A stretch of DNA of 64,000 nt from a virus. Lineage: Duplodnaviria > Heunggongvirae > Uroviricota > Caudoviricetes. The stretch lies in the IMG/VR virus record IMGVR_UViG_3300024270_000010; one strand, written 5' to 3'. The notes below the pieces were generated by a model. The model ran no database searches. It was not told the origin of the DNA and worked only from the letters and a program-made list of their open reading frames with translations. This document shows positions 3-56,248 of this stretch, in pieces (positions within the stretch are counted from its first letter, which is position 1; every line of letters begins with the position of its first letter). A program made the position numbers and the translations under genes.

Positions 3-3000
3 ATGGGCATTAATATGTCTGACTATTTTGTTCAAATGGCAGATGGGTCTTATAAATTAACTGCTGATGCAAAAGAATTCTATGATGTTGTTAATGCTAA
101 AACTTTAGAACAATTCCAAAATAATATTGACGCTTTACGCGGTCAAAAAGCAGATGTAAATAATTTACAAAATAGTACCTATGATAAGGATTCTATTGCT
201 ACAATGGATACTAATATGATAGGTATGATTAAACAAGATAATGATAAATTAGGAGATCAATTAACTTTCTTAAAAGCAATTGGTTCTGATTTAGAAAATC
301 TTGATAGCTATATTCAAGAGATTGAAGCTGGTAGACAATTAACCCAACGTCAATTAAGAGAAATTCGCAACGAACTTGAAGAAAATGCTTGGCAATGGGA
401 TAATTTATCTCAAGTAACTGAAGGGTTTGATGCAGAAATCCAACGTAATATGGATGCATATGCTATGTCTGCAACTACAGTTGGAGATTTAAATGATATG
501 CTTCGCGAAGGATTAATTAATGCTGAAGCATATAATAAAGCAATTGAATCCGTAATGGATGTGGAATTTGAGGCTGAAGGGTTAGATGTAGAAGCCGCTA
601 ATGATGTAGCAGATGCTTTCCGTGAAATGGCAGATGCTGGTGAAGCAGGCACAGAAGCTTTAAAAGACAATGAAGAAGCTGTTAAAGATGCTACTGTTCG
701 TTATATGGAACTTAACGAAGCTATTACTGATATTTATGATAATTATGATGATTATATAGATGTTTTAAAAGCAGCAAGAAAAGCTTCAACTCCTTTAGAA
801 AAAGCTAACCTATTAAATGAAAAATCTGCTAGATCTTTAAGAACTTCTTTGGCAGGTTTGCTTGGCACTACAGAAGATTTAATTGATGCAGATTTAATGG
901 CAGCAATTAATCCAGCAGATTTCGAAGCAGCTGCAAACGGTAGTGTTGAAGCTATTGATAGAATTAGAGAGGCTTTTATAAAATTATAGATTGAAGGTAT
1001 TGATGGAATTACACTTGATGGCTTAATGGCTGAATTAAATGCATTTAATGATGGTGCTTATATTGATTTAGACAATATGCCAATGCTATGGTCTTTAATT
1101 GAAGCAAAGGTTGCCGCAGGTGCAACTGCAGCTGACATTGAAGCTTTGTTAAGTGGTTTGAACATCGATGCTGATGTTAGTGATTTCTATGGTACGATGG
1201 AAGAAATGGCAGCTATTGCAGAGCAAGCTGGTTCTCGTGTAGTACAAGCTACTTCTTTCTCTCAAACATCAACGACTGAAACTGAAGCTACTCCACGTAC
1301 AGTTGATAATGTAAATTTCACTGAAACTGTTACAACTACTAATCATCCGTCTATTGCGGCAGTGCCTATGACAAATGGTTTTGGACCATTAATTTATGGT
1401 ACTAATATGGTTAGTTATTAGAAGTCTGTAAGTGTTGATCCAGTAAGTTATCAAACTCAAGATACTGCAACTGCTACTGAAGTTGTCACTGAGAACGCTG
1501 CGGGTGAAGAAGGTAAAGTTCGTGGTATTTAGATAAATGGTGCTCATAAAGCTCCAACTGCTTCTAGAACTCCAAGTCCAACTAATACAACCAGAAAACC
1601 TGTATCATCAGGCAGTGGCGGTGGTGGTAGTAGTGGTAGTAAAGCAAAAGAACCTTCTAAACCAAAATAGATGGATACCACTAAACAAACTGATGTAGTA
1701 AAAAGATATAAAGAAATTGATGATGCGCTTGATGATTTATCTGATGAATATGATAGAGCTTCTAAATCTGCAGATAGATTATGGGGCGAACATCGTTTAG
1801 ATGCTCTTCGTGAACAAAATGCTTTAATTGAAGAGTAGCAAGAATTGTTAGCTGAAAAATAGCGTCAAGCAGAACGCTATATGAAACAAGATCAAGTTGC
1901 TTTACAATAGGCTGCAGCTGCAGCGGGATTAGCCTTCTCATTTGATGATAAAGGTAATATTACTAATTACACTGACTAGATGACTGTCCTTTATAATCAG
2001 TTAGCTGCCGCAGAATCTCGTTACAATTCTCTTGCTACTGGTGAAGCTCAAGAGTCTTATGAAGAAACTATTCTTGACCCTCTAAAAAATAAGATCCAAA
2101 ACATTGAAGATGCAATGGAGTTATACGAAGAGAGTAAAGAATTATTTGAAGAATTGGGTATTAACATTGAAGATCTTCAAGATTAGATTATGCAAAATAA
2201 TTATGATATTATAATGGACGGTTTAGAGCTTCATATTGGTTTTAATGAAGAAGATTTAGAAATAATTAATTATTATTTATCTAAGATTGAAGATGATTTT
2301 TATTCTATGGCTGAAGCTGCTGCTTTAATAGCAAATCCAAAAGGAAATAGTCAATTGACTGAGTATATTTCTAATTTAGAAGAATATGAATCTTCTCTTC
2401 AAGGATTAAATAAAGCTTATGTCGCAGGAGAAATTACTGAAGCAATGTATCAAGAAGGCTTAGAAGAAGTCCGTTCTGGTATTAGAGATAATTTAAGTTC
2501 TTTAGTTGAATTAGATAATACTATGAAAGAGTATTATAGTAAAACTCTAAATATGGCCTAGGAAGAATTAGCGAAGTATACTGACCGTATGGAGCATCAA
2601 ACTGAAGTTCTAGAACATTATCAATCTTTAATGGAAATTCTTGGCAAAGAAACTGACTATAACGGTTTAGGAATTATTCTTGAAGGTCAAGCAAAAACTA
2701 TTGAAAATCAAATGAAGGTTGCTAAAGAAGCATATGCTATGTATCAATCTGAAGCAGATGAAAAGAAGAAATTGCTTGATTAGGCTATTGCCACAGGAAA
2801 TACTGAAGCTGCAGAAGTATATCAGAAAGAATGGGAAGCTGCTAATGCTGCTGCCATGGAAGCTCAACAAGATATGCTTGATAAAACTGAAGAGTGGGCT
2901 GATGCATTACGAGCAATACTGGAGAATAAACTATCTGGTTTCGCTCAAAATTTAGAGAACGCTCTGACCGGAGGCACATCTTTTGATACTTTAACTACTT

Positions 3001-4688
3001 CTATGGAGCGAGCAGCTAGTCTACAAGAAGAATATTTAACAACGACTAACCAAATTTATGAGACTAATAAGTTGATGCGCGTTGCACAGCAAGCTATTGA
3101 TAATTCCACTAGTAGTATTGCAAAGCAAAAACTAAAAGGATTTATTAATGAAACTAAGCAATTGCAAGATCAAACAAAGTTAAGTAAATACGAGTTAGAA
3201 ATTCAGCAAGCAAAATATAATTTATTATTGGCTGAGATGGCTCTAGAAGATGCTCGTGATGCGAAAACTGTTGTTAGATTAAAGCGTGATAATGAAGGCA
3301 ATCTTGGTTATGTATATACCGCAGATCAAGATAAGTTGGCCGAAGCGCAACAAGAGTTAGAAGACGCACAAAATAGTTTATATAATATTGGATTGGAAGG
3401 CGCTAATGAATATAGTGAAAAGTATCAGCAAACCATGAGTGAAATGTATGATACATTTACTGAACTCCAAGAGCAGTATTTGAGTGGTGAATTCGAAACT
3501 GAAGCTGAATATCAAGATGCTATGTTAAAAGCTAAGGAATATTATTATGAAAAATTGAAGAGTTATTCTTCTCTGCATCAAATAGCATTGACTACAGATA
3601 GTCGAGTCATTGCAGATGCTTGGTCTTCTGATTATAGCGAAATGATTTTCAATACTGAAGATTGGATGCGCGCAGTTACTGAATATGTTGGTAATGTAAA
3701 TCTTGCATTTGACGAATGGGAAGAAAATGTTGATACTATTACTAATGAGACTCTTGGACCAAATCTTGATACTCTTGAAGATAACGTTAAAGATATTACA
3801 GATGCTAATGATGCTTTAACTGATTCTATCGTAAAAGATGGCGGCGTTATTGACGCTATTGAGTCTGAATTGGATCAAGTTAGTGAATTGACTGGTAAAT
3901 ACGCTAATTTAAGACAATAGATTCAGGGACTGATTGCGGATCATGAAACTCTTATGGTACGTATTGGCAATGAACCTAATCCTTACACTCCTCCTGGAAC
4001 TGGTACTTCTGGAAGTTCTTCTTCTAGCGGAGGTAGTAGTGGAAGTTCTAATTCTGGTAATTCTTCTAGTGGTAGTGGTCGAGGTTCTAGTACAGCAAGC
4101 ACATCTTCTGGAACTAGTACTAAAGAAGCAAGTGCTCCAGAATATAGTGACACTACTAAGCAAGGAGTTGCTCTCGCAATTTGGAATGGTGGTTTTGGTT
4201 GGGGTAACGGTACTACCCGCCGCAACCGGTTGGATGAAAAAGGATTTGATCCCGAAGAAATCCAGCGTATTGTTGATATTACTAATCCTAATGGAGATTG
4301 GCGTACTCGTTATGGAATTTCTGACTTAAGTAAGTATGCTTATTCTAGTTTTGATACTGGTGGTTATACTGGAGCTTGGGGTTCTTATGGTAAGTTCGCT
4401 ATGTTACATGAAAAAGAATTGATTTTGAATCCAGGTGAAACTGAAAACTTTTTAGCAAGTATGGAAGTATTGCGTAGTATTATCAAGATGATTGACTTAC
4501 AAAGCACTGCTTCTCAGCTAGGTGGATTGTTACATAGTCCTGGATATTACGCTCCTCAAACTTCTGAGGTATTAGAGCAAAATGTTCATATTGAAGCTAG
4601 CTTCCCTGAAGTAACTGATAGATATGAAATTGAAGCTGCTTTGACTTCTATCGTCAATCGTGCTTCTCAATACGCTAACCGTAAATAA
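3..4688 (+). CDS. Tape measure protein, C-terminal ~1561 aa (5' truncated by window; TAG read-through)
   Basis: Track fragments at 3, 1026, 1980, 2190, 2589, 2856 and 3954 are all in one frame and separated only by TAG (12 in total). I translated the gaps and found no TAA/TGA until 4686-4688. Long helical A/E/D/Q-rich protein with a C-terminal FDTGGYTG...AMLHEKELILN motif typical of TMP ends, located upstream of tail genes. Confidence 0.88.
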
Positions 4689-4779: not shown

Positions 4780-4809
4780 AGATTATAAGAGAGAAAGGAG
4801 ATATTGGTT

Positions 4810-7800
4810 GTGGTAATAGATTATGCTGAGGAACTGTTAAAAGCAGTTGATATAGTTGTAGAATAGCGTATTCGAAATATCCAAATGGATACTACAATTA
4901 TTTGTACTGTTACTGATAATACAGAAAAGAAAAGTGGCATATATCAGGTAACTGATGGTGCCGCAAAATTTACTGCCAAAACCGATGCCAATAGTAGATA
5001 TTATAATGTCGGAGATACTGTAAGAGTTCTTGCTATTAAAGGCGATTTGGGTAACTGTTATATTAGTGGTAAATATTCTTATAATGATGACAGTGATCCC
5101 TTAACTTATATTTCTCCATCTGAAACTGTTGTTGATATGACTGATAATCTGATTCCAGGTAAAGTAGATGCTTGGGGCATTACCGCAAATGGCGATGAAA
5201 CTCAACTTCCTCTTTGGAGTGTAAATTTATCTAATTCAGATTATAAAGATTTACAAACTAACAGTATTTATAATACTCTTAATCTAAAGGCAGATTTTAA
5301 ATGTCTTTTATCTAATTATAAAATGAAAACAGGTACTTATGGTTTAATTTTACGATTAGATGTTAGACCAACAAATGATAATAGCCAAACAATTAGTCAA
5401 TGGGTATCATTAGATTCCACAGATATGTTTGGTAATCCATATGCATTTATGGTATATTCTACACAAGAAGCCACATTCGATATTTCTGGATTGGGCACAA
5501 TTGAAAGTCTTCAATTATTTTTATATCAAAATGATGATTTTGAATTTTATAATGATAAAGGTTTCCCTGAGCGGTTACCTGCGGTTGATTTCAGTAATAT
5601 TCTTGTGAAGAATATTTATTTGAGTTTTGGCTCAGATTTAACTAAAGTAGAAGATAATACTTTACAAATTTATACTGGCGATAGTGCTATTTATAATATT
5701 AGCGACGATGGTAGTAATTCTCGTGACATCGGATTGCTATGGTATAATAAAGACGAAGATAATACTTATATTGGTTTTAGTGATGGTATTTATGACCCCG
5801 GTTATGATGAAATTACTTATTTAGAAATAAGTGAAGTTGATAGTCGTTTGGTCGCTCAAATGGGCAAGGACGTTCCTAATGATGAAATTGCATTAGGGAT
5901 TTCAGCTGATATTGAAGAGGCTCAACCGATTTTCAAAAATCTTCGTAATGCTTTAACAAGAGATTTAAGAAATAACTTAACTTCTTATCGAGATTAGATT
6001 CAATCAATTGAGACTTTTAAAGACGATTTTGAACTTCTGTTATCTGAAATTTCAATTGTCGGTTAGCAAATTGAAGAAGATCAAAAAACTATGACAGAAG
6101 AATATGCTACAATTTTATCTGCGGCAAAAAAAATTCAAGATGGTATTGTTGTAGCTAAACCAAATCAAACTGTTACAATTGATAAGATAAAAGAAAAAGT
6201 AAATTCTGTTATTGGGGATACAGATGCTTTATTGTCAGCAACAGAGACTGAAATAAAAGATAAATATACTGGTTTTGTAAGTATATATGATACTTATGAG
6301 GCTCGTATTGAAAAAGTCAAAAAGTCAATTACTGGTTATATCGATCAGCTGAATGCATTATTAGCTGATGATGCCAATAAGATGGATGCTTTCTTCCTGC
6401 CAGGTTATAATTTTGAGCCTTATGGAAGAACTGATTTTAGTGAATATGATAATAAATACTGTATTTACTGGTATCGGTATGAACCTGGTTATGCTAACTT
6501 AGAAGAAAGATTCCTTGAAACAGGATGGCATAGATTATCAAAAAAATTAAATGTTGGATTGCCTTCTGCAAAACTAAGTGAAGATAGTATTTATAATGCT
6601 AAAAAAACATTAAATCCAGAAGGAATTTTAGAAGTAGAATTAGATACTCAATACGTAGAAGAAAAATATATGGCAGTATTATTCTTTAATCATAATATGT
6701 ATAAGAGTAATATTCTAACTTTTACAAATGCAAATCCTCCTGTAGATGAGAAGATTGTAGACTAGGCTGATGCTTGTCGCATTGAGCATGGAGATAACTC
6801 TCAACCTTCTTATCAAGTTTATGGATTAAATAACTTATTAGTAAATGCGGCCGATGGTTATCGTAAACGCGAACTGTTATTGCGCTATGAGGGCTTGACC
6901 GCAGGTGATGAAGCATTATACGGAGCGCAGATTTTCTGGTACATTCCTAAAAATTCAACTATGTTGAAATATGAACTTGAAGATTTTGACAGTTCTTGGT
7001 CTAATGATGAAAAGGCTATGCCTGGAGTAACTTCTCCTTATTCTAAGACTGGTTATGTATGCTTCTATAAAACAATCGGTGGTACAGAAAGCACTGACGA
7101 AGATGGAAAAGTTCATTATGAAATTGCAAATCGAGACAGATATTTTACATACCGCATAAAAGATTATTATTCTCAAAGTTTTACAAATAATACAATTTAT
7201 TGTAGAGTTGTAAAACCTAATTATTATGACTGCAATGCAGAGATTTCTTTAATATTTAGTAGCTTTGGTACTTCTGGAACAGATTATACTTTAGTAATTT
7301 CTCCTAATACCGCAAAAGCTGCGGCAGATGGTGTATTAGAAGATGGAGCTAATCTTCCTCTTGGTCTGGCATTATATGATTATGATAATAATCGAATTAA
7401 GATTTTGGATAGTGCTCCGGCAGTTGATAATCCAGATCCATACTTAGCAAGTTTAGAATGGATTGGTCCTACTGGATATTATGCCGCACCAGTCTACAAT
7501 AGTGATCCTAAAGGATATGGTGTTGAAAGAATTAATATCACCTTAAAAGAGAGCGAAGGTCCATTGCAAAAATACTATAATGGTATTTTGAAAGCGACAG
7601 TCCCTTACCCTATTGATGAATTAGGTGAAATTATCAATTTAATTTCTATTTATACTGTTCCTTATACAGCTGGAAATTATTATATTGAAGGTCCTGGTAT
7701 TGTAGTTTATAACTCTGATGGAGTTAATCCTACTTATTATAAAAATCCATATAAGATTTTTAGACGTAAGGAAGAAACTGATGCTGATGGTAATGTAATC

Positions 7801-10389
7801 CATGAAGCTGATTCTGAAGTTACTGGTGTAACTTGGAAGATTATGTATTATAAAGAAAATGGCGATATTATGACTGCCACAGATTGGGGTCAATCACAAT
7901 ATGCTGTTTTACAAAGTTATATGCCTAAATTGAATGAGCGAAATTGCTTGATTCCTTGTCATATTTTCTTAGAAAATAATGGTGGTACAATGGTTTATCC
8001 AGTTGTTACTTGTGAAGATGAGGATGCAGTAGTAATTTGGGCTCAGCCAATTTATTGTATGAAAAATAGATACGCTTCTGCTATGATCAATAAATGGGAC
8101 GGTAGTCTAGTTATTGATGAAGAGAATGGAACTATTATGTCTACTATGGTAGGTGCGGGCCGCAAGAACTCAGAAAACCAATTTGAAGGTGTTTTACTGG
8201 GCGATGTAAATACCGCCTCTGAAGATAATGCTACTGGCGTAGGCTTATATGGTTTCCACAAAGGAGCGCAAAGCTTTAATTTCAATGTTGATGGTACTGC
8301 TTTTATCGGTAAATCTGGTAGAGGTAGAATCAAGTTTGATGGAAATACAGGTACTATTACAAGTGCTTCGTATGAACAAGCAAAAGATTCTTCTGGAATG
8401 AAAATTGATTTAGATGATGGTATCATTGACATGAAGGGAGCTAAAATTGATGCTACTACTGGTAAGTATGTAGCAGATACTGCAAGTCATATTCATATTG
8501 ATGTAAAAAGTCCTTATTTCAAGATTGATAGTGTTAAAGGTAAAACTTTAATGTTTATCGGCGGAGAGAAAGAAGGATATTATTTACAATCTGACGAATA
8601 TAATGAAACAAAATTTACTTTGAATGAGACTGAATCTAATGGCTTAACTACACCAACTACTGATACTACTGGTACCGGTATGCGATTGGATTTAAAAAAT
8701 GGTACATTAGATGCATTTGATTTTTATTTAACTTCAAAGAATGTAATGTTAAATTCAAAAGATTCAAGTAAACCTTATTTTGTTATTAAAGATAATTGTA
8801 ACAATATGCTTATGCATATTGGTGGTACTAAGTTCTGGCTAAAATCTGCTGATTATAGTGAGACTGCAGCTGGTGAACCTGAATCTGGTATGAAAATTGA
8901 TTTATCTACTGGTAAAATTGATGCTTTTAATTTTTCATTAGTTTCTAGTAGAGTTAAATTGAGTACTAGCGGAACAGTAACAAAACCTTATTTAGAAATT
9001 GTTGGTAATGATATAACTTTAATGCATATTTCTGAAGCGGGACAATATATTCGTTCTAATACTTTTATTCGAGAGGCTGCTGGTACTCCTGGAACAGGTA
9101 TGGAAATTAATCTTGGTACTGGAGAATTTACAGCTTATACATTTAATTTAAAAGCTGGTAATGCTTCTACTGGTCAATTAAGAATTGATAGTAGTGCCGC
9201 ACAATATCCTTTGTGGATAGGTACAATTGATAAAACCTATGATCCTGAAAATGATGATCCAGAAGATATAATTCCTAATTTTAAAGTTGATTGGGCCGGC
9301 AATTTTTATTCACAAGGTGGTAAATTTACCGGAGCAATTCATGCAACTAGCGGTACTCTTGGTAGTTTAACTGTTAGTGGTGTTTTGACAGGTGGTACTA
9401 TTTCAGGTGCTACTATTGAAGGTGGCGTGTTAAAAGTAGGTCCAACCTCAGGAGAAACTGGTTATCAGTTATATGCTGATAACAAAGAGGTTGTAATTAA
9501 AAATGCAAAAATTATAAATTGTGATATTTAGAGCGGCGATGGAGCTCCCACAGGTACTGGTGGATTTAGTGTCACTCCAGCGGGTATTATGAAAGGTTTT
9601 GGTTGTAGTTTAACAAATGGATCTTTTACCACTTGTACTGTAATTGATTCTTTATATATCGGAGGAACTGTGGATGGAAAGACCGTTTCTGGCAATATTT
9701 ATTTAAATGGTAATAATAAAATATATTTTGGTTCTGGTACTGGTAATTATTTATATTTTTCAGATGATGGTCGTGTTTCAGTAAGTGCTTTAACGGCTTT
9801 TTATGCTAATAAAATAAATGCTTCAAAAATAACTGCTTATCAAATTGTTGGTGCGCTAGAATCGAATGGCATGGAAGACTATAATACTCAAGTGTTATTT
9901 ACTTCAGGAGCAAAAGTAAAAGGTCATTATTTATCAGCAGAAAATTCTTCTGGAGCTTTACTATTTTCAGCAGGTGATAATACCGCTGGTTTATATGCTA
10001 GTAGCGTTTATTTAGGTGGTACTAAGACCGCTTCTGTTAATGTAGCAGATGGTAATGGTAGTGTTGTAAGCTTAGAGGCATATATAAAATCAATAATAAA
10101 AGATAGCGTTACAGTATCTGTGACTTCTGGAGCTAGTGATACAACAGTAACTGGTGGAACAGATGGGGTTTATACAGTAACAACAACAGATAATAAAACT
10201 GTTACAGCATCTTAGACAATTTGTTGTTATACATATACACAACCTTCTGGAGGTTATTTTTCTACTACTGAAACAGCTGGTAGTCCGCCATCAGGTTCTT
10301 ACTATACTTATTGTACTAAAGATAAATCTCAAACAAAAGATGTTTCAACTTCTGGTACAATTCAAGTAGCTGTTACTATTAAAGATTAA
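4810..10389 (+). CDS. Large tail protein (~1859 aa; TAG read-through), beta-rich C-terminal spike/fibre-like region
   Basis: GTG start after RBS. Fragments 4885, 6091, 6880 and 9589 share a frame and are joined by 6 TAG (4864, 5995, 6064, 6763, 9529, 10213); ends in TAA. Follows the TMP and has G/T/S-rich beta repeats. Confidence 0.75.
8395..9150 (+). repeat. Protein-level ~70-aa repeat in the tail protein
   Basis: G-M-x-(I/L)-(D/N)-L-xxG motif at 8395, 8677, 8887 and 9097; the last three are exactly 210 nt apart, with recurring PY(F/L)xI and LM(F/H)I blocks. Confidence 0.7.
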
Positions 10390-10842: not shown

Positions 10843-13689
10843 ATGAAATTACATCCACCTGTTATAGATGGTAAATTACCTGCTTTTGCGGGAACCTCAA
10901 TGAATATTCCTTTTATGTTGAATCGTGCAGTTGCTCTATCTGATTTGAATGAAGCCACTCCACTAAAATTGAAAATTAAAACTGTAAAAACCAACAGAGA
11001 GATTGGTACTTTTAGTGGTCAATATATATACAATAAAGCTACGGGTAATTATCATGCTAACTTTATTTTATCTGAAAAGAAAAATGAAATAAAATTTGGT
11101 ACTTTTTATAAAGTTCAAATTGCTTTTGTTTCTAAGGATAATACTGTGGGTTATTATTCTACCGTAGGAATTATTAAATGTACTACATACCCCATCGTAA
11201 AAGTTTAGGGACAAAGTGATAATTTATCTAATAGTTATGAATATGTTGGTGTTTATCAACAGCCAAGCGAAGGTAATAAGTATGATACAACAGAAAAAGC
11301 TTACTCTTATTGTTTTGAATTAAGGGACATTGATGGAAATATTGTTTCTACAAGCGGAACTCAAATTCATAATAGCTCTTATGATACGGAGCCAGAAGAG
11401 ATGCATGACCACTGGGTTTTGCGAAAGAATTTGAAAGAAGGAGTTCCTTATTATCTTACTTATAAAGTAACTACTACCAATGGATTAGAATGTGAAAGTC
11501 AAAGTTATCCAATTGTTACTCAAGAAAGCGTAGACTCTTCTCTTCAAGAGAAATGTGATTTAATTGCCACTTCTAATTTTGAAGATGGTTTTATTCGTTT
11601 AAGTTTACGTCCAAAAGTGAAGCATGGTGTTATTGATGGTAGCTTTGTTTTGTCTCGTTCTTCTAGCGAAGATAATTTTGATAGCTGGAATGAGATTTAC
11701 CGATTCTCTTATAAAAATCTTCATGTATATGGAGATATTGGAGAATCTGCGGACTTATTAACAACTCACCCAGATTTTTGGGATAAGAATGATTTAATCC
11801 TTTGGGAAGATTTTACTGTGCAACAAGGTGTTCAATATGTTTATTCTATTCAAGCATTCAATGCTCAAGGATTATTTTCTAATCGAATGATAAATCATAA
11901 ATGGACACTAGCTTATCGTGACAATGATATGAATGCCGCAGGCGACTATGAAGAGCCTGATGGTTATGATGAATACCGCAGAGGATATTATTTTGACAGC
12001 ACTCCAGAAACTATTACAGTTGATTTTGAAGATATGTTCTTATTTGATGGCTCTCGTCAATTAAAGATTAGATTTAATCCAAAGGTTACTTCTTTTAAGT
12101 CTACTGTTTTGGAATCTAAAATTGATACTTTAGGCGGTAAATATCCATTCGTATTTAGAAATGGTAATGTAGAATATAAAGAATTCCCTGTATCTGGATT
12201 ATTATCTCTCATTAGTGATCCAAATGAGTTCTTCTTAAAAGGTATTTAGACTGAGAAGTTATTATATCGTTCTTAGGCTAATGGCGATGAAATTATCGGT
12301 CCAGGAGATACTCATGTAACTATGGATAATTTACGCAGAGAACGCGAATTTAAAATGGAGGCTTTGTCTTGGCTAACAAATGGCAAGCCTAAGTTGTTCC
12401 GCTCTCCTAGCGAGGGTAATTTTATTGTTCGTATTATGAATGTATCCATGTCTCCACTTGATGTAGTGGGACGTATGCTTCATAGCTTTAGCGGAACTGC
12501 TTACGAGATTGCGGAATGCACTTTTGATAATCTAAATACATATGGATTTATTTCTGCTCCTGATAGAGATAATCGCGATCTGAAAATCGGTTAGATTAGA
12601 CTTGCGGACGCCGCAGATCCCAAAAAAGATGTACAAGGATTTAGTGCAGAAGGTAATAAAATTACCACTCCCGCAATTTATCGAGCTAGCTTTACTGGTG
12701 TCGCTCCTGGAACAATTTTTGCATTAAACTTTGAAGATGGATATGGTAATGTTGAAATTGAAATTGGCTATACGGGTACTTATTATGTACAAGTACAGGA
12801 TAAACCAATTACTTCAATTACTTTATTAAAATCCGCAGATATTGATAAATTAGATTATACTAAGAAACCTGAGACCGATGATTGGAGAGACGCATATTTA
12901 ACTTTCTGTTATTATGATAGTAATCCTACTGATAATTTTAGTAAGATTACAAGCATCGCAGTACAAGACGAATTTAGACAATTTATTGGCACTGGCTTTA
13001 ATGCTAATCTTATTTCTTTTTTGGAAGATATTCGTCGATAGACTGGTAGATTCCATTATTTGCGAATTAGCGAAAGACCAATTCGTCAGATTTATAAAGA
13101 TAGTAACGGAGTTTGGTTCTTTAATCCACAGTTCACCGATCGTATATATGATACTGAATGGGATGCTAGTGTAATTTATCAAGTCGGAAATTCAGGAACT
13201 TATTATAGCGGTAAACCTCGTTCTCCCATGGGTAAGCCTGATTATCGTCTAAAGATTGTAAATGGTGATGGCGAGTATGAGGATGAAATCAAATTCGATG
13301 GTAGAAAATCACCTGGCATCGAATTAGATAAATGGTGGCCTACTAATTCTTATAATAATGGTCGTATCAATAAATCTTCTGGTACTCACAGTAGAATTGA
13401 TGCGATTACTGGTGTTGATAAAATTGATGGAATTTATATTGGCACTGGTTTAATGGTTGAGATGGCTTATCGTGTTAAATTCTTAGGATATGATGTTGAG
13501 ACTAGTAGTAGTGCAGTTAGAAATGCTAAAGCAACTTGGCAGGCTGCAATTGAGAATTGGGAAGCTGTCACTGGTGATGCAGAATCTACCAGAGAACAAA
13601 TTGATGCTAGTTTACAACAAATTGAATCTGCTTATGCAAAATATATAGAAGCACTTGAATATGCTTTGGCACAGGAGGTTGAAGATTAA
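10843..13689 (+). CDS. Minor tail protein (~948 aa; TAG read-through; distal-tail-like central region)
   Basis: Fragments 10843, 11401, 12322 and 13060 are in frame and joined by 5 TAG (11206, 12247, 12274, 12592, 13039); TAA stop overlaps the next ATG. Confidence 0.7.
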
Positions 13690-16586
13690 TGGTTTATGAT
13701 AAAAATTTTTTATTAGAGTTAGATAGAGATAAAAACAAAACCATTTATGCTCGTATCACAGCTTTGCGCTTTGATGAATCTCCTATTGAATTTATTGAAG
13801 GTCGTGTAACGCAGGGTTCCATCAATATCGATGGAACCTCTGCCATCAGACGCTCTTGTTCTTTAACCATGGTCGCCGCAGATTTTGATTATCGAAATTA
13901 TTATTGGGGACTGAATACTAAATTCAAGTTAGAAATTGGATTGGAAAATTATATCAATCCTGCCTACCCAAAAGTATGCTGGTTTGATTAGGGTGTCTTT
14001 TTAATTACTCAATTTAATACAAGTCGTAATGCCTCAAGTTTTAATATTTCTGTATCTGGTAAAGATAAGATGTGTTAGCTAAATGGTGAAATTGGTGGTA
14101 ATTTTGAATCTTCTGTTGATTTCGGTCAAATTGAAGAACAAAATCCTGATGGCTCTTGGAAAATTACTAAACTTCCAATTCATCGTATTATTCGCGAAAT
14201 GATTCACCAATACGCCGGAGAGCCTTTTCACAATATTATTATCAATGATTTAGAAGAATATGGTTTAGAGCTTTTAGAGTATCAATACGATGTTCCAATG
14301 TTTTTATACAGACATATTGATTCTCCAATTTATACAAACGCTTTATTAAAAGGTGAAGTCGAATGTAAGGTAGACAGAGTTAATCCAGAAACAAAAGAAG
14401 TAGAGCGAGTATCCATTCAAGTAAAAGATTTAACTAATACAGAATTAGAAATGTTAGTTGATCCATTGACTGGAACACCTAATCCCTCTGAAGTATGGAT
14501 TTGGGACAGTGAAGAAAAGCAAGATATTCCTTATTATTTTGCTAAGATTGAAACTAATTAGACTGCAGGTTATCGAACTACTGAGTTAACTTACCCAGGT
14601 GATTTGATTGCGGCCGCAGGTGAAACAGTTACTTCTGTTTTAGATAAGATCGTAAATATGCTTGGTGAATTCGAGTATTTTTATGATTTATAGGGACAAT
14701 TCATTTTCTAGAAAAAGCGTTCTTTTGTCAATACTTTATGGTCTCCATTGGTTGATAGTAGTTCCGATGATGAGGATGGTTCTTATGATGAACAATATGT
14801 AGAAAGCTTGGCGATTGCTTCCTCTCAAAGTTATGTATTCCATGAAGGAGAGCTAATTACTGCTTTCAATAATAATCCTAATTTGACTAATATGAAAAAT
14901 GATTATTCAATTTGGGGTACTCGTGCTTCCGTTCAAAATACTGAAATTCCAATTCATATGCGCTATGCAATTGATAAGAAACCAACCTTCTACCGCACAT
15001 ATGACGGAAGTAAATTCTTTACAACTGAGAAAAAAACTGATGAAGATTTATATAATGAAATCTTTAGCGAGCTATATGAAGAATTTACTAAAAAGCCAAA
15101 TCCAAATGGATTACCGGAAGATTGGTGGGATATTATGGATTGGGCTGAAAGATATAAAATGCTAAAAGGTTTTTATCCTCCTGGACGTATTGGCCAATAC
15201 TGTTCTGAAGCAGTAAGTAAAAGAATTGATTTAAATTCTTATTTCCCTGCTCCTCCTGAGGATTAGAATTTGAATGATAGTAGAGGTAAATGGAATCATT
15301 ATCGTGACATTTATATCTTTGATGTAGAAAGTGATGGAACTCTTGGATATTATGGACATTATAATGGATGTACTCATTATTATGAATATTTCTTAGAAAG
15401 AGCGTTAGAAGGATTAGGAACTTCTTACATTTATAAGCCAGAAATTCCCGAATCTGAAGGCGGCGATGTAAGTAATATTGTTGTTGATATTATGAAAAAT
15501 CGTGTTTATAATCAAGATTGGCGAGAAATTATTTATCAAATGGCTTTAGACTATTATCAGCATGGTCAAGAAGAAGATTTTGAGCAACGGATTATTGAAA
15601 ATAATTATCCTTATTATCCTACTGGATTGACTGGATATGAATCTTATTATATTGATTTACAAGGCTTTTGGAGACAGTTATATTATCCCATTGAAAGAAC
15701 TGTGCAAGAATACCAAGATGAAAAAGCAAAATTAATGGAAGAGAAAGGGTTCATTGGAAATTTTATTTATACTCCTGAATATATTGAAGAGAACAAAGAA
15801 GCATTATCTAACCTAGATAAGAAATTTGATTATTTCTTCTATGTAAGAAAAGAAAAGGACGAAGAAGGCGTAGTGCATGAGCTAGATCGATTTGGACCTG
15901 AGCAAGAAGAAGATGAAACAGATGACGCTTATGCGGAAAGAATAGACGCATTGTTATTACAATTCCAAGATGCTTTATACGTCACTTTAACTGAAATTGA
16001 AGAGCTTATTGCGAAGTGCGATACAAAAATTGAAGCAGTTGAAGAAGAAAGCTCTTATTATTATACCAAAGATGAACTTTATCCTCATTGGCGTAAAGAT
16101 GTTTATGAATCTCCTTAGAGCTTGAATTTCTGGTTTGACTTTTTAGATACAGATGGAGAACTGGCACAATTCAATGTGTAGAATGTCGGTCGTAGGCCAA
16201 AAGTTGTAAATGATTCAAGTGTAAAATCCATTTATTTTAGAGATACACCGGACATTATTTTTAGAACTGCTGATGAGGGAGAAATAATGACTGGTTATAG
16301 ATACATTTAGGCTCCAATGATTGAGACCATGTTTAAGATTAGTACTCAAGGCAAATCCGCAAAAGATAAGTTAGATGAACTAATTTATACTCATGGATAT
16401 TGCATTGAAAATGCTACAATTACAACTATTCCAATCTATTATTTGGAACCTAATATTCGTGTGCATTTATATGACAACGAAACCAATCTATGCGGAGATT
16501 ATATTATTAGCAAATATACTATTCCATTAGCATATAATGGAACAATGAGTATTACTGCTACTAAAGCCGCAGAAAATATTGTTTAA
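13689..16586 (+). CDS. Baseplate hub/tail protein (~965 aa; TAG read-through)
   Basis: Fragments 13689, 14199, 14748, 15270 and 16317 are in frame and joined by 9 TAG. N-terminal GSINIDGTSAIRRSCSLTM and C-terminal IPIYYLEPN...YIISKYTIPL motifs resemble gut-phage hub proteins. Confidence 0.7.
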
Positions 16587-16602: not shown

Positions 16603-16971
16603 TTGAAAGCTATTAGACAATTTAGATATTATGGATCTGATTTGATTAATAATGAATTTGCCAAAATAAATAATTATCCAAATGATCCTTCTTTCCCAGA
16701 AAGATTGATCGGTGGTAATATTTTTAATGAATATAGCGCAATCACAAAGCTTGGTATTCAAGGTCGTCCAGGTACAATGTTCTATTTGAATGATAGTAAT
16801 TACCCAATCGTCATTGGCGAGACAGGTATTTATGAGATTGATTTAGAAGGTTATGGACAGATTTTCCGTATCAAATTTGACGGTCCTTCATTGAAGTGGT
16901 ACGATGAAGATGGCAAAGGCGACCGTCTTCTAATTGACATTGTATTTGAAGGGTCAGGTGGAAGCGCATGA
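16603..16971 (+). CDS. Small structural/baseplate-associated hypothetical protein (122 aa)
   Basis: TTG start after AAAGGAGG; TGA stop overlaps the next ATG (ATGA). Confidence 0.6.
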   Translation: MKAIRQFRYYGSDLINNEFAKINNYPNDPSFPERLIGGNIFNEYSAITKLGIQGRPGTMFYLNDSNYPIVIGETGIYEIDLEGYGQIFRIKFDGPSLKWYDEDGKGDRLLIDIVFEGSGGSA

Positions 16972-20675: not shown

Positions 20676-20689
20676 GGAGGAATTGAAGA

Positions 20690-22111: not shown

Positions 22112-22131
22112 TATAAGGAGGATTACTAATA

Positions 22132-24261: not shown

Positions 24262-24264
24262 TTC

Positions 24265-24300
24265 GGACAGAAAAGGACAATAAATAAGTTGTTATTTTCA
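24265..24300 (+). promoter_or_regulatory. Tripartite motif, copy 2 (candidate late promoter)
   Basis: GGAC-N10-AAT-N13-TTTTCA. Confidence 0.6.
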
Positions 24301-24322
24301 AATCCTTATGAAGGATGATTAT

Positions 24323-24360
24323 ATGGAGAGGATAATATAATTATCCTCTCCATTTTTTTT
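24323..24360 (+). terminator. Terminator-like hairpin in the leader of the giant gene
   Basis: ATGGAGAGGATAAT-ATA-ATTATCCTCTCCAT 14-bp stem followed by a T-run. Confidence 0.75.
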
Positions 24361-24386
24361 ATATTTGGATAGAAAGGAGAGCAACA

Positions 24387-33158: not shown

Positions 33159-33176
33159 TAAAGGAGGTCAATAATT

Positions 33177-36081: not shown

Positions 36082-36113
36082 TAAAATCTAGGTGAGAAAG
36101 GAGAAAATATACA

Positions 36114-38915: not shown

Positions 38916-38971
38916 TAAAGCTATGAGGGGATTGGATAAAATATTTTTTGTATGGAGAGGAGACCTTACAT

Positions 38972-39406
38972 ATGTACTCAAACTATAATTATTATCCACA
39001 ACAACCCTAGCAAGTCGCCCAATAGCAACCAGTGTACCAACCATTGTCTTACTTACGACAGGCGCCGCCGCAAGCAGGACTGAAAGGACGCTTGGTAGCA
39101 TCATTGGAAGAGGCCCGTGCAACCTCTATTGACTTTGATGGTTCTGTATTCTACTTCCCAGATTTAGCGAACAGACGAATCTACACAAAACAAATAAATA
39201 TGGATGGCACCGCATCACTGTGTGTGTATGAATTAAGGGAAATGCCCGTTTAGAGAGAAGAGAGCGGTTCTGTTCCATCCGTTGAGAAATTTGTAACGAG
39301 AGAAGAGTTTGAGCAGGTCCTGGCGCAACTACAAATGCTCCAGAAGCCAACCGAGCCGGCCGTATCTGCCCCCGCAAAAGAAAAAGTAGAATTAATGTCA
39401 TTCTAA
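38972..39406 (+). CDS. Cassette gene A: N-terminal Q/P/Y/N-rich low-complexity region plus small beta domain (144 aa; TAG read-through)
   Basis: GAGAGGAG RBS; 3 TAG, two inside the Q-rich tract PQQP*QVAQ*QPVYQP; TAA at 39404. Confidence 0.78.
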
Positions 39407-39416
39407 GGAGGTATGA

Positions 39417-39671
39417 ATGATGTATCCAGTAAACCCAAATAAATTAATCCAAATGATTAAATCCGGGCAAAATCCTCAGCAATTGATGTTATCAATTTTG
39501 AAAGGACAAGCCTATGATAATCCCCTCGGAAAAAATCTCCTAAATTTAGCTCAATCTGGTCGCACTGTCGAATTAGAGAAAGTAATTCGCAACCTTTACG
39601 CCCAGTAGGGCGGTCAAAATTTCGACCAGGAGTTCGAAGCCTTTAAACGTGCATTAGGCTACAACACTTAA
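39417..39671 (+). CDS. Cassette gene B: small helical NP/Q-rich protein (84 aa; TAG read-through)
   Basis: AAGGAGG RBS; TAG at 39606, reading continues GGQNFDQEFEAFKRALGYNT to TAA. Confidence 0.72.
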
Positions 39672-39692
39672 AATTTAAGGAGGAAAAAAATT

Positions 39693-40409
39693 ATGTTCAA
39701 TGGAAAAGGTTATAATTTATCTGATATCGCTGCTGTAACCCGTGGAAGTGGTACTGGTTTCGGTGGAGATGGCGACGGCGCATGGTGGCTGTTACTGTTA
39801 TTCCTGTTTGCGGGATGGGGTAATGGTGGCTATGGCGGCGGCCTTGGCGCAGGTAACGCTCGCGACGCTGTTTCTTATGGCTTTGATATCAACAATCTAG
39901 AAAATGGAATCCGTGGACTAGAGCATGGTCTATGCGATGGTTTCTATGACATGAACACTTCTTTGCTAACTGGTTTTGGTAATGTTACTATGGGTAATAT
40001 GCAGAACACTAACGCCATTATGGGCCGTTTGTGTGATATGTCCGCAGAGCAAGCTGCTTGTTGCTGCGAAACTCAGCGCTTGATTGAGAGAGGTTTGTGC
40101 GAAGTCAACTATAATATCTTGACTCAATCTAACGCAACTAATACTAATATTGCCAATGCCGCGAGAGATATTATTGAAAACAATAATAATGGTGTTCGCT
40201 CTATCTTAGACTTCTTGACTCAGGATAAGATTGCTACTTTGCAGGCTGAAAATCAGGCTTTGCGCTTGACCGCTTCTCAGCAAGCTCAGAACGCTTTCTT
40301 GATCGACCAGTTAGGAACTAAGGCTCCTATTCCTGCATACATGGTAGCTAATCCATATGCTAGCTATGGTTGTGGTATGAACTACTATGCTGGATGTGGC
40401 TGCAACTAA
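39693..40409 (+). CDS. Cassette gene C: Gly-rich, hydrophobic segment, CCC motif, coiled coil, Y/C/G tail (238 aa)
   Basis: AAGGAGG RBS; AWWLLLLFLFAGWG segment; ACCCETQ; LQAENQALRL coiled coil; YGCGMNYYAGCGCN end. Confidence 0.8.
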   Translation: MFNGKGYNLSDIAAVTRGSGTGFGGDGDGAWWLLLLFLFAGWGNGGYGGGLGAGNARDAVSYGFDINNLENGIRGLEHGLCDGFYDMNTSLLTGFGNVTMGNMQNTNAIMGRLCDMSAEQAACCCETQRLIERGLCEVNYNILTQSNATNTNIANAARDIIENNNNGVRSILDFLTQDKIATLQAENQALRLTASQQAQNAFLIDQLGTKAPIPAYMVANPYASYGCGMNYYAGCGCN

Positions 40410-40428
40410 TATCTAAGGAGGAAAGTAT

Positions 40429-40851
40429 ATGGAAATTATTGCTAATGCTGTTCAAACAGTTCCCGCAAATCAGAATGTTTATTTCACTGATTCTGTTACT
40501 TCTGGAAATTATTCTATCGAGCATCGTGATGGTAGTGGATTGGTGACTCTTCGCGGAGTCACCAATACTCAGTGCCGCGCCCGTTTTAGAGTACATTTCG
40601 GCGCAAATGTCGCGATTGCAGAAGGTGGCACCGTCGGACCAATTTCCTTAGCTATCTCTTTGGATGGTGAAGCGGTTCCAGCTACAATTATGACTGTCAC
40701 CCCTGCCGCAGTTGGAGATTTCTTCAATGTGAGCGCATCTATCTTTATTGATATTCCAAAAGGATGCTGCTCTCATGTGGCCGTGAAGAATATTTCTACT
40801 CAGCCAATTGATGTACAAAATGCAAATCTAATTGCTGAACGTTCTGCGTAA
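40429..40851 (+). CDS. Cassette gene D: predicted all-beta sandwich protein (140 aa)
   Basis: Alternating hydrophobic beta-strand pattern throughout; AAGGAGG RBS; GCC motif. Confidence 0.75.
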   Translation: MEIIANAVQTVPANQNVYFTDSVTSGNYSIEHRDGSGLVTLRGVTNTQCRARFRVHFGANVAIAEGGTVGPISLAISLDGEAVPATIMTVTPAAVGDFFNVSASIFIDIPKGCCSHVAVKNISTQPIDVQNANLIAERSA

Positions 40852-40862
40852 GGAGGGATAGT

Positions 40863-41444
40863 ATGGACCACGAAAGATTAAAACACATGAAAGAAACTTT
40901 AATGTGTGCTGTTGAAGTACAATTATGTGATTTGGGTGAAGTAGATACTAAAGAGCTTGGAGAAGCTATTGATATGATTAAAGATTTAGAAGAGGCAATC
41001 TACTATTGCACCGTTACAGAAGCTATGAACAACTCTTCACACGAAATGGAGTTTGAAATGAAAAAAGGCGGCCATCACCAGTAGGAAAATGGTGACAGCC
41101 GCATGTATTATGACAGAAATCGTAGAAGTGATGGTACATTCTATGCTGACAATGATAATTCTTCTTCTTCTGGAATGAATAGTTCTAATGGAAGAAATTA
41201 TTACGATGACCCAGGTATGTGGCGCGATGAGCGCGAAGGCCGCAGTTATAATAGTCGTAGAATGTATATGGAAGCCAAGGATATGAAACGAGATAAAGCT
41301 ACTCAATTGCGTGAGTTAGAAAAGTATATGCAAGAGCTATCTCTGGATATTACCGAAATGATTGCGGATGCTTCTCCAGAAGAAAAAGCATATCTTGAAA
41401 AGAAGATAACCGCATTGGCTTCTAAAATTGGTCAAATGAAATGA
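40863..41444 (+). CDS. Cassette gene E: helical ends with a central S/N/Y/R/D-rich linker (193 aa; TAG read-through)
   Basis: Fragments 40863 and 41103 are in frame and joined by TAG 41082; TGA stop overlaps the next ATG. Confidence 0.78.
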
Positions 41445-41752
41445 TTATAAATGGCGTGCGCTGGCGGGTCCGGTTGGTCTCGCCAGCCCATCCAATGCTA
41501 CTTACGCCTTGGAGAACTCACGCTCTTGGAGTTTGTGATAAAGTCACATAGACTATATGTATAGACAAGACTCTTTCCCCTCAACAACTAAAAGAAGTCT
41601 TATGTCATGAATTAGTTCATGCTTTTATGTTTAGCTATGCTGTGGATTTATCATATGATGAAGAGGAAATGGTAGCAGAGCTTATGACTGAATATGGAGA
41701 AGATATATTAGAACGGACAAACGCGATTTATAATGGTATAAAAATGAAATAA
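41441..41752 (+). CDS. Cassette gene F: small HExxH (zincin, ImmA/IrrE-like) metallopeptidase (103 aa; TAG read-through; absent from ORF track)
   Basis: ATGA overlap; MIINGVRWRVRLV...GVCDKVT*TICID...EVLCHELVHAFMFSY...EEEMVA; TAG at 41549; TAA at 41750. Confidence 0.78.
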
Positions 41753-53844: not shown

Positions 53845-54078
53845 TCAATCATGCTCTCCTATTGCTTCATCTAAAATCTGAATAAAACGCATCATATCTC
53901 GTTCATGCCTACGTATGACAGCCTCATGTGCTTTTGGTTCAGAGAACCCTTTACACTTCATCAATTCAATTTTGTCGTGTTCAAAGGCTTTTGCCTGGTA
54001 TTCCTTAAAACGGAATACCAGACTATCAAACATATAACCCTTTAAATGCTTATTATCACTAAAATGTACTTTTTCCAT
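53845..54078 (-). CDS. Hypothetical protein (77 aa)
   Basis: ATG downstream of its own promoter (54126-54098). Confidence 0.55.
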   Translation of the reverse strand: MEKVHFSDNKHLKGYMFDSLVFRFKEYQAKAFEHDKIELMKCKGFSEPKAHEAVIRRHERDMMRFIQILDEAIGEHD

Positions 54079-54097
54079 ACTAATACCTTTTATTTTT

Positions 54098-54126
54098 ATT
54101 ATACCAAAATATTTCTTATAAATCAA
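54098..54126 (-). promoter_or_regulatory. sigmaA-type promoter
   Basis: TTGATT-N17-TATAAT with TG extended -10. Confidence 0.75.
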
Positions 54127-54445
54127 TAAGGAACATATTGTTGTCCAATTTAAGAAAATCTTCATCCCACTCAATTTGGGGAAAAATTTCTAAATCGCTT
54201 TTTTGTTTTGGGTTTTCGGCTGGCGCGTCTGGCACCGGTCGGATGGCGTCTTGGAGAGCAATTATATTGGCAATAGCATTGCTTATCGCTCTTTCAAGTT
54301 CATCGACTCTACATTCAAGCACTCGAAAAGAATCACTCAATGTAGTTGCAGTACTAGCCATATCACAAGTTAGCATATCAACTCTATCTTGGATTAGATC
54401 AACCATGTACTTTGCGCCATCAGCAGTTAATACTTGTAATGCCAT
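54116..54445 (-). CDS. Hypothetical coiled-coil protein (109 aa)
   Basis: AAGGAGG RBS; heptad pattern. Confidence 0.6.
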   Translation of the reverse strand: MALQVLTADGAKYMVDLIQDRVDMLTCDMASTATTLSDSFRVLECRVDELERAISNAIANIIALQDAIRPVPDAPAENPKQKSDLEIFPQIEWDEDFLKLDNNMFLIDL

Positions 54446-54454
54446 ATATCCTCC

Positions 54455-56248
54455 TTAGAAGTAATACTTCTGTTCACCAACAATTTCATAATCCTCAATA
54501 ATAATTTGAGGAGAAACACTTCCGTTCCAGACATTGCGTTCACATTTGCCAACTACATTGATGGTGATACAACCCATCTCACTCTTCAACTTCTCATATT
54601 CTTCTTGAGAAGATTTGAATTTGATAAGACTTGTGCCATTTGGTAAAGTGATCTTCAAAGTAGGACTCTTATCGGGAGACATGAGCACAATATTACCGCT
54701 TGATACATTGATATGTTCAATAGCAACAAATGGTTCATCAACGCCTTGACCCCAAAGAGATTTCAAACCAGCAATCTCAATGATATCACTACCTCTGAAA
54801 TCTGCTCCACTGAAAATGAAATCAACTTTATAACAAGGAGTAAAATCAAACTCAGCCAAAGCCTTATTTGAATACTCCACAAATTCAGAAAATACTTTAT
54901 CGTAAATGCCAACGCCGAGCGCATTAGCATGGCCTTCCGCATACATTACCAGGCCACTATTTTGTAGGAACTGGCGCAAATTATCAAACTTAGATTTATC
55001 ATAACCACGACCAGAGCCTTCCCAGCTTTGCTCCTGTAAAGTCATAATCTTCTTACCATTGGTATCAAATATGTCTTGCTCAGTAATTGTCTTATTCAGT
55101 AGTAAAACTGGACGCTGGTATTTAGCCATAAGTTGGTTGGCGATAAGACCGGTTAGATTGCGATCCGCAGAAAAAGAATCCAGCTTGATTGCCAGAATTT
55201 TATTCTTCAATAAATCTTTTTGCTTGATAATAGCTTCAATAGTCTCAAGCGCAGCATCTCTTGCCTTAGTCTGACGATTTTTGATATTCGTACAATTTCG
55301 GCACGCCTGCTCTACGCGAGTTTCTTGCTGACCCTTACAGCCTCTCTTGGTTGAAGGAATTAGCTCATATCCACGATAATCTAACATCGATTCAAACATC
55401 AATAACTTTTCCTCTTGGCTACCCATTCGGATAGTAGCATTGACATATGGAGCAACATAGAACGCAATACCAATAGGAGTGATACCGTCCTTTAGCGAAT
55501 ACTGTTGCTTATCAACCATGCCTTTGAAATAAGGATTTCTGATATTTTGTAAGCCACGATGAATTAAATGCTTGGTTTCAAAATCTCTCAAATCCATCAT
55601 ATCGGCAATCATGCCAAGAGCAACCAAATCAAGAAACTGATCGGCATAATCAACATTCATAAGTTCGTCAATATAAGAACAAAACTTATAAACCATGCCG
55701 ACACCAGAAAGAGATTTAGTTGGATAATCACATAGCTGGTTATTGATAACGCAAGCATATTCGCTAACTTTTTCAGCTTCGTGGTGGTCAATAACCAGAA
55801 CATCTACTCCACGCTCATGGAGCTTTTTATGTTCTTCATAATCATTTGAACTTGAGTCTGGCGCAATTACCAACTTTACATCAGCTGGAATTGTATTGAG
55901 AATAATACCATGTTCTTTACCATTATGGATGCGGTAATAAACATTATTCTGAACATATCCAGGAAATAGGCAGTTCAAATAATTGATTAGTGTTGCCGCT
56001 GAAGTGTAACCATCACAGTCGCTATCAATTTGGATTAGGATCTTGTGTCCTTGCGAGATGTGATAAATCAACAGCTTTACACCCTACGCGATATTCGCAA
56101 TAAGGGAGGGTGCTAAAATGTCTTCATCAGTTGTATTTAGATAATGCTCAATTTTATCGGGTTCAATGCCACGATTTACGAGTACCTGTTCGACCGCAGA
56201 TAAAACATCCTTGTGCGGGATGCGAGGTACTATTAGTTGATATTCCAA
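54455..56248 (-). CDS. recJ: RecJ-like DHH single-strand exonuclease (597 aa; TAG read-through)
   Basis: TTG start after AAAGGAGG; TAG at codon 55 (56086-56084); DSDCDG, DHH, IAD, GSGR and GHANALG motifs. Confidence 0.9.

Follow-up and report, generated by a model that had tools for sequence, protein, structure and literature searches.

In the phage analysed here, TAG is a sense codon, which never terminates a gene and interrupts conserved proteins in frame. The window, i.e., the whole stretch of 64,000 nucleotides, is part of a phage contig of 91,480 bp with a completeness of 44% (CheckV), and we consider it very likely that this contig represents a fragment (about 44%) of an uncultured tailed phage of roughly 200 kb, in which TAG is translated as glutamine (code 15). 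The genes discussed below are listed with their coordinates in the window.

3..4688, plus strand: C-terminal half of the tape measure protein (PHROG tape-measure matches, CW_7 repeat); the gene begins 4.7 kb before the window (contig ORF 8029-17418) and encodes 3,129 aa with 36 TAGs in total, 12 of them in frame inside the window
4804..10389, plus strand: tail protein, 1,861 aa, 6 in-frame TAGs, TAA end; its counterpart in the recoded relative G001 has 26 TAGs
10843..13689, plus strand: tail-module protein, 948 aa, 5 in-frame TAGs; the phrog_30026 match (395-567) spans TAG469/478
13689..16586, plus strand: tail-module protein, 965 aa, 9 in-frame TAGs; the phrog_32343 match (3-152, E 1e-35) spans TAG101 and TAG130
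16968..19124, plus strand: fibre-like protein, 718 aa, 5 in-frame TAGs, with 33-aa and 27-aa tandem repeats
19188..33824, plus strand: seven TAG-free ORFs amid the late plus-strand genes, one of which encodes 2,156 aa and contains BspA-type leucine-rich repeats
33976..38288, plus strand: two fibre/adhesin-like genes (701 aa, 5 TAGs; 724 aa, 3 TAGs, Listeria-Bacteroides repeats)
38948..41752, plus strand: small late genes with in-frame TAGs, namely the four that follow
38948-39406, plus strand: late gene, 3 TAGs, Q-rich tract
39417-39671, plus strand: late gene, 1 TAG
40863-41444, plus strand: late gene, 1 TAG
41441-41752, plus strand: HELVH metallopeptidase-like gene, 1 TAG (codon 37, before HELVH)
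42322-42807, minus strand: RuvC-like Holliday junction resolvase, TAG at codon 120
53845..54261, minus strand: 138-aa ORF that matches no family by itself, TAG at codon 24; we interpret it as the N-terminal part of a Dda-like helicase that an HNH endonuclease gene has split
54455..56248, minus strand: RecJ-like ssDNA exonuclease, 597 aa (phrog_2484, E 5e-153, residues 17-594; DHH and RecJ_OB domains), TAG codon 55 inside the family match

With TAG as sense, a greedy ORF set of the window contains 53 in-frame TAGs in 15 ORFs, or 55 TAGs if the ORF at 38948-39406 (PHROG match, 3 TAGs) is used. An earlier note, made from the sequence alone, had counted about 53 TAGs in 13 genes. Three of the window's TAGs lie within the first 24 codons and could precede the true starts (codon 21 of the 4804 ORF, codon 10 of the 10340 ORF, codon 24 of the 53845 ORF). 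Once TAG is read as sense, 72 fragments in the window become 49 genes, and the coding coverage of the window increases from 90.2% to 96.8% (contig: 86.0% to 95.7%), which is the comparison of coding densities that the note had proposed. Control reassignments of TGA or TAA gave no gain in coverage in either. Terminators are TAA (36) and TGA (13) in the window and TAA (57) and TGA (16) in the contig, so that, as the note had stated for its reconstructed genes, none ends in TAG (0 of 73 in the contig), as opposed to 10-12% of genes in standard-code relatives. Chance is excluded because the frames that read through TAG run on for 700-3,129 codons, despite an off-frame frequency of TAA plus TGA of 8.2% per codon. 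Family matches cross TAGs in RecJ, RuvC, the tape measure protein, the phrog_32343 protein and an endolysin just outside the window. The catalytic motif DECDAICIG of RuvC was found 19 codons downstream of TAG120 and HELVH was found after TAG37, both 3' of a TAG as first described.

To assign an amino acid, 83 TAG sites of the contig were aligned to the standard-code relatives G004 and G005, resulting in 153 cells. Glutamine was the commonest residue in these columns (41 of 153, against a background of 3.8%), followed by Lys (17) and Glu (15). This profile (Q 27%, K 11%, E 10%) resembles that of substitutions at true Gln positions (Q 37%, E 10%, K 9%), unlike the profiles of true Lys positions (K 48%) or true Glu positions (E 44%). 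The log-likelihood favours Gln over Lys by 63 at the contig's TAG columns; the gaps range from 63 to 72 for the contig and from about 190 to 200 for G001, with a lead of 193 for the latter. The commonest codon swap between the contig and G001 is TAG<->CAA. Conservation is poor at the sites of the window taken by themselves (Gln in 10 of 65 cells, a lead of 14), and the Gln call from the window alone is therefore modest. Based on the TAG columns, the TAG<->CAA swaps and the Gln-type tRNA(CUA) genes of the nearest relatives, sequence comparison supports glutamine as by far the best-supported meaning of TAG. The assignment proposed in the earlier note is thus upheld by bulk statistics and not by single sites.

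Single columns do not discriminate between residues. The Q-rich tract PQQP*QVAQ*QP, to which the note had pointed, is indeed encoded at 38996-39030 on the plus strand. The 81-nt (27-aa) repeat at 18783-18947 spans a TAG at 18840 as claimed, but the second copy has AAA (Lys) and not a Gln codon opposite this TAG, which makes it weak as an argument for Gln. At RecJ codon 55, the column varies between E, Q, D and others; the nearest relatives have Glu, and Gln occurs only at greater distance. The last two sites, together with the second and third rank of K and E at the TAG columns, are what favours another sense reading of TAG (Lys, Glu, pyrrolysine or a mixture), as does the label 'Pyl' that ARAGORN assigns to the tRNA(CUA) genes of the relatives. 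However, this label is due to the anticodon only, and these tRNAs are ordinary cloverleaves with Gln-type acceptor ends. In view of the column profile and the log-likelihood gaps as well, we regard a residue other than glutamine as improbable.

The decoding machinery is not encoded in the contig. No tRNA, tmRNA or other Rfam family was found in the window or the 91-kb contig by ARAGORN and Rfam, and a domain search of the contig revealed neither a release factor domain, RF2 included, nor GlnRS/GluRS-class domains. This agrees with the note, which had seen no suppressor tRNA or release factor in the window; the search for tRNA(CUA), GlnRS and RF2 that it had suggested for the rest of the genome yielded none in these 91 kb, which are 44% complete. 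The lack of a suppressor tRNA is probably due to the fragmentary state of the contig, in which the tRNA/release-factor region of the relatives is missing, and we therefore infer the machinery from the relatives. The nearest of these, G006 and G010, whose RecJ is 80-82% identical to that of the window, carry arrays of roughly 40 tRNAs with two tandem tRNA(CUA) genes. Next to one tRNA array lies an RF2 gene, whose product has the motifs SPF and GGQ; it is present in one of two genome copies in G006. The suppressors show U1, a weak or mismatched 1:72 pair and G73, as in the array's own tRNA-Gln, and no theta or HDV-like ribozymes were matched beside them at the Rfam gathering score. The recoded relatives G001-G003 contain no tRNAs. 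A recoded lineage without tRNAs was nevertheless rejected, since G001, which has 349 in-frame TAGs, matches a stretch of the 402-kb record G006 identically throughout the 21.7 kb that were compared, and G006 has tRNA arrays; at that offset, G001 would start about 3 kb past the end of one of them.

In one relative, a tRNA(CUA) of 97 nt has an enlarged extra arm, and the loop of this arm, CUCUGAC, is identical to that of the anticodon in tRNA-Gln(CUG). This extra arm could be a decoy identity element, in which case the Gln-charging pathway of the host would accept a tRNA with a stop anticodon. It is possible, if somewhat doubtful, that the complete genome holds such a 'two-headed' amber suppressor, as one nearest relative does. 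No paper describing this extra-arm design was found in the literature.

The 105 TAGs of the contig are confined to 23 of its 73 genes, for the most part those of tail, fibre, lysis and homing endonucleases; the other 50 are TAG-free. The tape measure gene has 36 TAGs, the tail and fibre genes 3-9 each and the endolysin 2, as opposed to zero in the genes of DNA polymerase, NrdD, primase, DnaB, topoisomerase and ligase. TAG is thus concentrated in late genes (tail, fibre, lysis), and the replication genes are nearly TAG-free. The TAG-bearing genes are CAG-poor (19% vs 49.5%, p = 1e-22). A derivation of the late-gene TAGs from CAG is nevertheless unsupported, as the late-gene orthologues of the standard-code relatives are likewise CAA-rich and the TAG columns show no enrichment of CAG.

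This distribution also bears on the question of whether the host itself reads TAG as sense, with the phage merely adapted to it and no switch during infection. The contig carries no suppressor tRNA, and phages with code 25 that match code-25 hosts have been described (Borges et al., bioRxiv 10.1101/2021.08.26.457843), both of which count in favour of such a host. However, host-matched phages have the codon in about 90% of their genes, as opposed to its skew to late genes here, the standard code is found in relatives whose RecJ is 63-69% identical, and the nearest relatives own tRNA(CUA) pairs, together with RF2 in one of the two G006 genome copies. A host code is accordingly, in our view, slightly less probable still than another residue. 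As for TAGs being real stops in fragmented or decaying genes, or assembly or sequencing errors, nothing beyond the formal table 11 reading speaks for it, and the sequence has already refuted it, leaving it a negligible chance, as only TAG interrupts genes and never TAA or TGA, each more than twice as frequent off-frame, frames remain open up to 3,129 codons, TAG terminators are lacking, and the pattern recurs in relatives that were assembled independently.

The nearest relatives suggest that the missing part of the genome would carry a large array of tRNAs, two of them neighbouring tRNA(CUA) suppressors of Gln origin, and it may carry an RF2 gene too, whose product terminates at TAA and TGA only. 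Early genes would be translated by the standard-code machinery of the host, until the suppressor tRNAs accumulate and allow full translation of the TAG-bearing late genes. In that case, the recoding would at the same time act as a timing lock for the proteins of the virion and of lysis.

Code-15 gut phages comprise the crAss-like, Lak, Garnet, Amethyst, Sapphire, Agate and Topaz clades (bioRxiv 10.1101/2021.08.26.457843), and in crAss-like phages TAG recoding was validated by proteomics (PMC9523058). The present phage resembles them in its in-frame TAGs that align with Gln, the lack of TAG terminators, the recoded structural and lysis genes next to largely standard replication genes, the close relatives with standard code, and the suppressor tRNA(CUA) and RF2 in the lineage; the same pattern is found in the literature (bioRxiv 10.1101/2021.08.26.457843; PMC9523058; PMC10607447). 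It differs in that this contig, a fragment, has no suppressor tRNA. Of the TAG-recoded genomes studied by Borges et al. (bioRxiv 10.1101/2021.08.26.457843), just 40% had a detected suppressor tRNA. The 91-kb contig contains no terminase gene by which to place it in one of these clades.

The phage is also similar to phAss-1 of the proposed Phassvirus (PMC10607447; OQ749652), TAG-recoded siphovirus-type gut phages with a tape measure of roughly 3,150 aa, about 30-36 tRNAs including 2-3 tRNA-Sup(CUA), and no dedicated aminoacyl-tRNA synthetase. The phAss-1 suppressor has a predicted Gln isotype (PMC10607447), and the suppressor tRNA of one relative shares 80% identity with a tRNA of phAss-1 that is annotated as tRNA-TERM. 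However, the DNA polymerase of phAss-1, homologous to that of the contig, is only 38% identical, and megablast of 25 kb of the window against a collection of GenBank phages gave no nucleotide match. With a full genome of probably about 200 kb compared to 136 kb, the phage is therefore placed outside the phAss-1 genus, as distant kin only.

The replication module of the contig is SPbeta-like; among cultured phages, the closest for these genes are those of the Bacillus phage SPbeta group (YorK RecJ-like exonuclease, YorL DNA polymerase), in which the two genes are close together. At 38-39% identity for the DNA polymerase and 37% for RecJ, this group is only distantly related to the phage, and we know of no recoding reported for SPbeta phages. 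The CW_7 domain, the Listeria-Bacteroides repeats, the BspA LRR and the anaerobic NrdD hint at a host that is probably a Gram-positive anaerobe.

Translation table 15 is required to annotate this contig, as the tail, fibre and lysis genes fall into about 30 spurious fragments with table 11. The phage is one more TAG-to-Gln lineage, and the phenomenon is already well described in gut phages, as the earlier note had stated and as Borges et al. and the phAss-1 group bear out; the knowledge of recoding itself is unchanged. Since there are standard-code relatives with a RecJ identity of 63-69%, the lineage is useful for studying the origin of recoding, and with both standard-code and recoded members it could serve as a model for the acquisition of the code change.

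The window corresponds to bases 12731-76730 of a single contig of 91,480 bp with a G+C content of 37%, which is classed as linear in IMG/VR, is 44% complete according to CheckV and represents a tailed phage. For 25 kb of the window, no nucleotide-level match exists among GenBank phages, and a terminase gene is absent from the 91,480-bp contig. The closest cultured phages are those of the Bacillus SPbeta group, with identities of 38-39% for the DNA polymerase and 37% for RecJ. Late genes lie on one strand and replication and nucleotide-metabolism genes on the other, as follows (window positions).

1 to about 41.7 kb, + strand: late module
within 1 to about 41.7 kb, + strand: tape measure protein
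within 1 to about 41.7 kb, + strand: large tail and fibre proteins with Listeria-Bacteroides repeats and a CW_7 repeat
within 1 to about 41.7 kb, + strand: small late genes
from 41.8 kb onward, - strand: RuvC, NrdD, guanylate kinase, Pol III alpha-type DNA polymerase (1,321 aa), Dda-like helicase, HNH endonuclease, RecJ, primase, DnaB, Sak4-like annealing protein and DHFR
contig, just past the window: topoisomerase II, NAD-dependent ligase, RNase H, endolysin and PhoH

The Dda-like helicase looks split around the HNH endonuclease gene (52004-54261, - strand):

52004-52966, - strand: C-terminal part of the helicase, 320 aa
53193-53753, - strand: HNH endonuclease gene between the helicase pieces
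53845-54261, - strand: 138-aa ORF containing one TAG, itself without a family match, taken as the N-terminal piece

The earlier note had proposed that TAG is a sense codon between 3 and 56248, and gene calling confirmed this. In a greedy set of window ORFs of 60 aa or more, the standard bacterial code (table 11) gave 72 ORFs covering 90.2% of the window, 26 of them "ending" in TAG, as opposed to 49 ORFs covering 96.8% when TAG was read through, which stop at TAA (36) or TGA (13) and never at TAG. The TAG count, previously put at about 53, is 53 in-frame codons spread over 15 ORFs, or 55 once the antisense ORF of the greedy set is replaced by the PHROG-matching + strand ORF 38948-39406. For the whole contig, reading TAG as sense raised coverage from 86.0% to 95.7% and reduced the genes from 106 to 73, which contain 105 TAGs in frame and never terminate at TAG. 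Control reassignment of TGA or TAA gave no comparable gain in the window or the contig. Since off-frame TAA and TGA together occur at 8.2% per codon, chance cannot explain frames of 700 to 3,129 codons that are interrupted by as many as 36 TAGs and by no other stop. Moreover, profile matches run across the TAGs of RecJ (phrog_2484, E 5e-153, residues 17-594, TAG at 55), of RuvC (residues 1-150, TAG at 120), of a phrog_32343 match (residues 3-152, TAGs at 101 and 130) and of the endolysin outside the window (2 TAGs). The motifs cited by the earlier note are all present where it placed them. In the 27-aa tandem repeat (18783-18947, + strand), the TAG at 18840 stands opposite AAA (Lys) of the second copy, which shows that this TAG lies within coding sequence and gives no pointer to Gln.

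With RecJ as the query, IMG/VR yielded 25 related loci, including two near-complete standard-code genomes, G004 (194 kb, RecJ 69% identical) and G005 (176 kb, with terminal repeats, RecJ 63% identical), to which the contig proteins, with X at each TAG, were aligned. Here, 83 TAG sites gave 153 aligned cells. Gln, whose background frequency is 3.8%, was the commonest residue in them (Q 41, K 17, E 15, A 14), and the true Gln positions of these alignments show a matching profile (Q 37%, E 10%, K 9%). In log-likelihood units, Gln is preferred over Lys by 63 and over Glu by 72; the Gln margin falls to 14 units for the window TAGs alone (35 sites in poorly conserved proteins) and reaches 193 units for 200 sites of the recoded relative G001 (176.6 kb, RecJ 82% identical). 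This relative contains 349 in-frame TAGs, and its coverage increases from 78% to 93% with TAG as sense. Its codons opposite contig TAGs are most often CAA (12), followed by TAG (11) and AAA (8), and the contig codons opposite its own TAGs are likewise CAA (37), TAG (11) and AAA (11). Two single-site clues are of no use in deciding for Gln: the repeat faces Lys, and the RecJ column, although Gln in some relatives, is Glu in the nearest ones. Taken over all columns, the alignments support the interpretation of TAG as Gln.

Neither a suppressor tRNA nor a release factor had been seen in the window, and the rest of the contig does not supply them: this fragment contains no tRNA gene, release-factor domain or GlnRS/GluRS-class domain anywhere in its 91,480 bp. 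The decoding genes of its nearest relatives are probably what it lacks, and, by the relatives' coordinates, a tRNA array would sit tens of kilobases past either contig end. The record G006 (IMGVR_UViG_3300032167_000002, 402,311 bp) has two tRNA arrays with about 40 genes apiece, both including two adjacent tRNA(CUA) genes, and the same pair occurs in the fragment G010 (RecJ 80% identical). G006 contains a genome of roughly 200 kb in two copies that have diverged, with RecJ proteins 82% and 80% identical to that of the window. Its halves are matched by G001 and by G002/G010 at 99.99-100% identity in the regions compared, G001 being identical over the 21.7 kb compared. Instead of a true 402-kb genome, the G006 record may represent a chimeric or concatenated assembly. 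An RF2 gene adjoins one array, the 360-aa release factor being assigned to RF2 because of its SPF and GGQ motifs.

All four distinct suppressor sequences have U1, G73 and a 1:72 pair that is weak or mismatched. The tRNA-Gln genes of the arrays carry the same acceptor-end signature (UGGGG...CCCCAGCCA), and from what is established for bacterial tRNA-Gln recognition we take these features to be Gln identity elements. One suppressor, in one of the G006 arrays, is unusual in form:

L092:2265-2361, - strand: 97-nt tRNA(CUA) with extra arm CACGG-CUCUGAC-CCGUG

It folds as a cloverleaf plus the extra arm, whose 7-nt loop CUCUGAC is the anticodon loop of the tRNA-Gln(CUG) of the same array, and the arm may serve in Gln charging as a decoy identity element. 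We found no paper on such a design. One of the relatives' suppressors shares 80% identity with a tRNA of phAss-1 annotated as terminator-reading; a Gln isotype was predicted for the phAss-1 suppressor (PMC10607447). Besides tRNAs, the relatives' arrays contain ROOL RNAs of full length (313-328 bits) and a drum RNA (78 bits), and the OLE RNA model is matched over a short stretch of its 3' part (53 bits, barely over the cut-off):

L092:6246-6837, L093:9967-10580, L094:3174-3284, L092:507-590, L093:4034-4121, L095:3209-3296: ROOL, drum and OLE matches

In G004 and G005, table 11 already covers 88-89%, no reassignment adds more than about 3 points and TAG terminates 10-12% of genes. No CUA anticodon was seen among their 36 and 25 tRNAs, respectively, a few Rfam-only hits being left untyped. 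Their standard code places the origin of the recoding within this lineage.

TAG is present in 23 of the 73 contig genes. The tape measure protein has 36, five further tail and fibre genes have 5-9 each, the endolysin has 2 and a gene resembling GIY-YIG homing endonucleases has 3; small late genes, the two fibre-like genes at 33976-38288 and, upstream of the window, connector or virion genes also carry TAG. It is missing from the core replication enzymes, apart from a single TAG in each of RecJ and RuvC. Amid the TAG-rich late strand, seven consecutive ORFs (19188-33824, + strand) lack TAG and show a CAG-rich Gln codon usage resembling early genes. One of them encodes a 2,156-aa protein with BspA-type leucine-rich repeats, whose G001 counterpart has 14 TAGs but shows just 31% identity, over 15% of the length. 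The block may have been acquired recently from a standard-code source; alternatively, its expression may precede the code switch.

All features tested agree with what has been published on code-15 phages. Of the groups described, the nearest one, phAss-1 and its kin, is TAG-recoded, with a tape measure protein of roughly 3,150 aa and about 30-36 tRNAs including 2-3 tRNA-Sup(CUA), and lacks a dedicated synthetase (PMC10607447); the kinship is distant, the DNA polymerase being 38% identical and a DNA match absent. TAG-to-Gln recoding is an already known phenomenon, to which the contig adds a new example. The same late-gene distribution of TAG was described by Borges et al. and interpreted as keeping the expression of late and lytic genes locked as long as the phage suppressor has not been made (bioRxiv 10.1101/2021.08.26.457843). 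In this phage, too, TAGs in late and lytic genes would hold back their expression until the suppressor accumulates, giving the recoding a putative role in timing.
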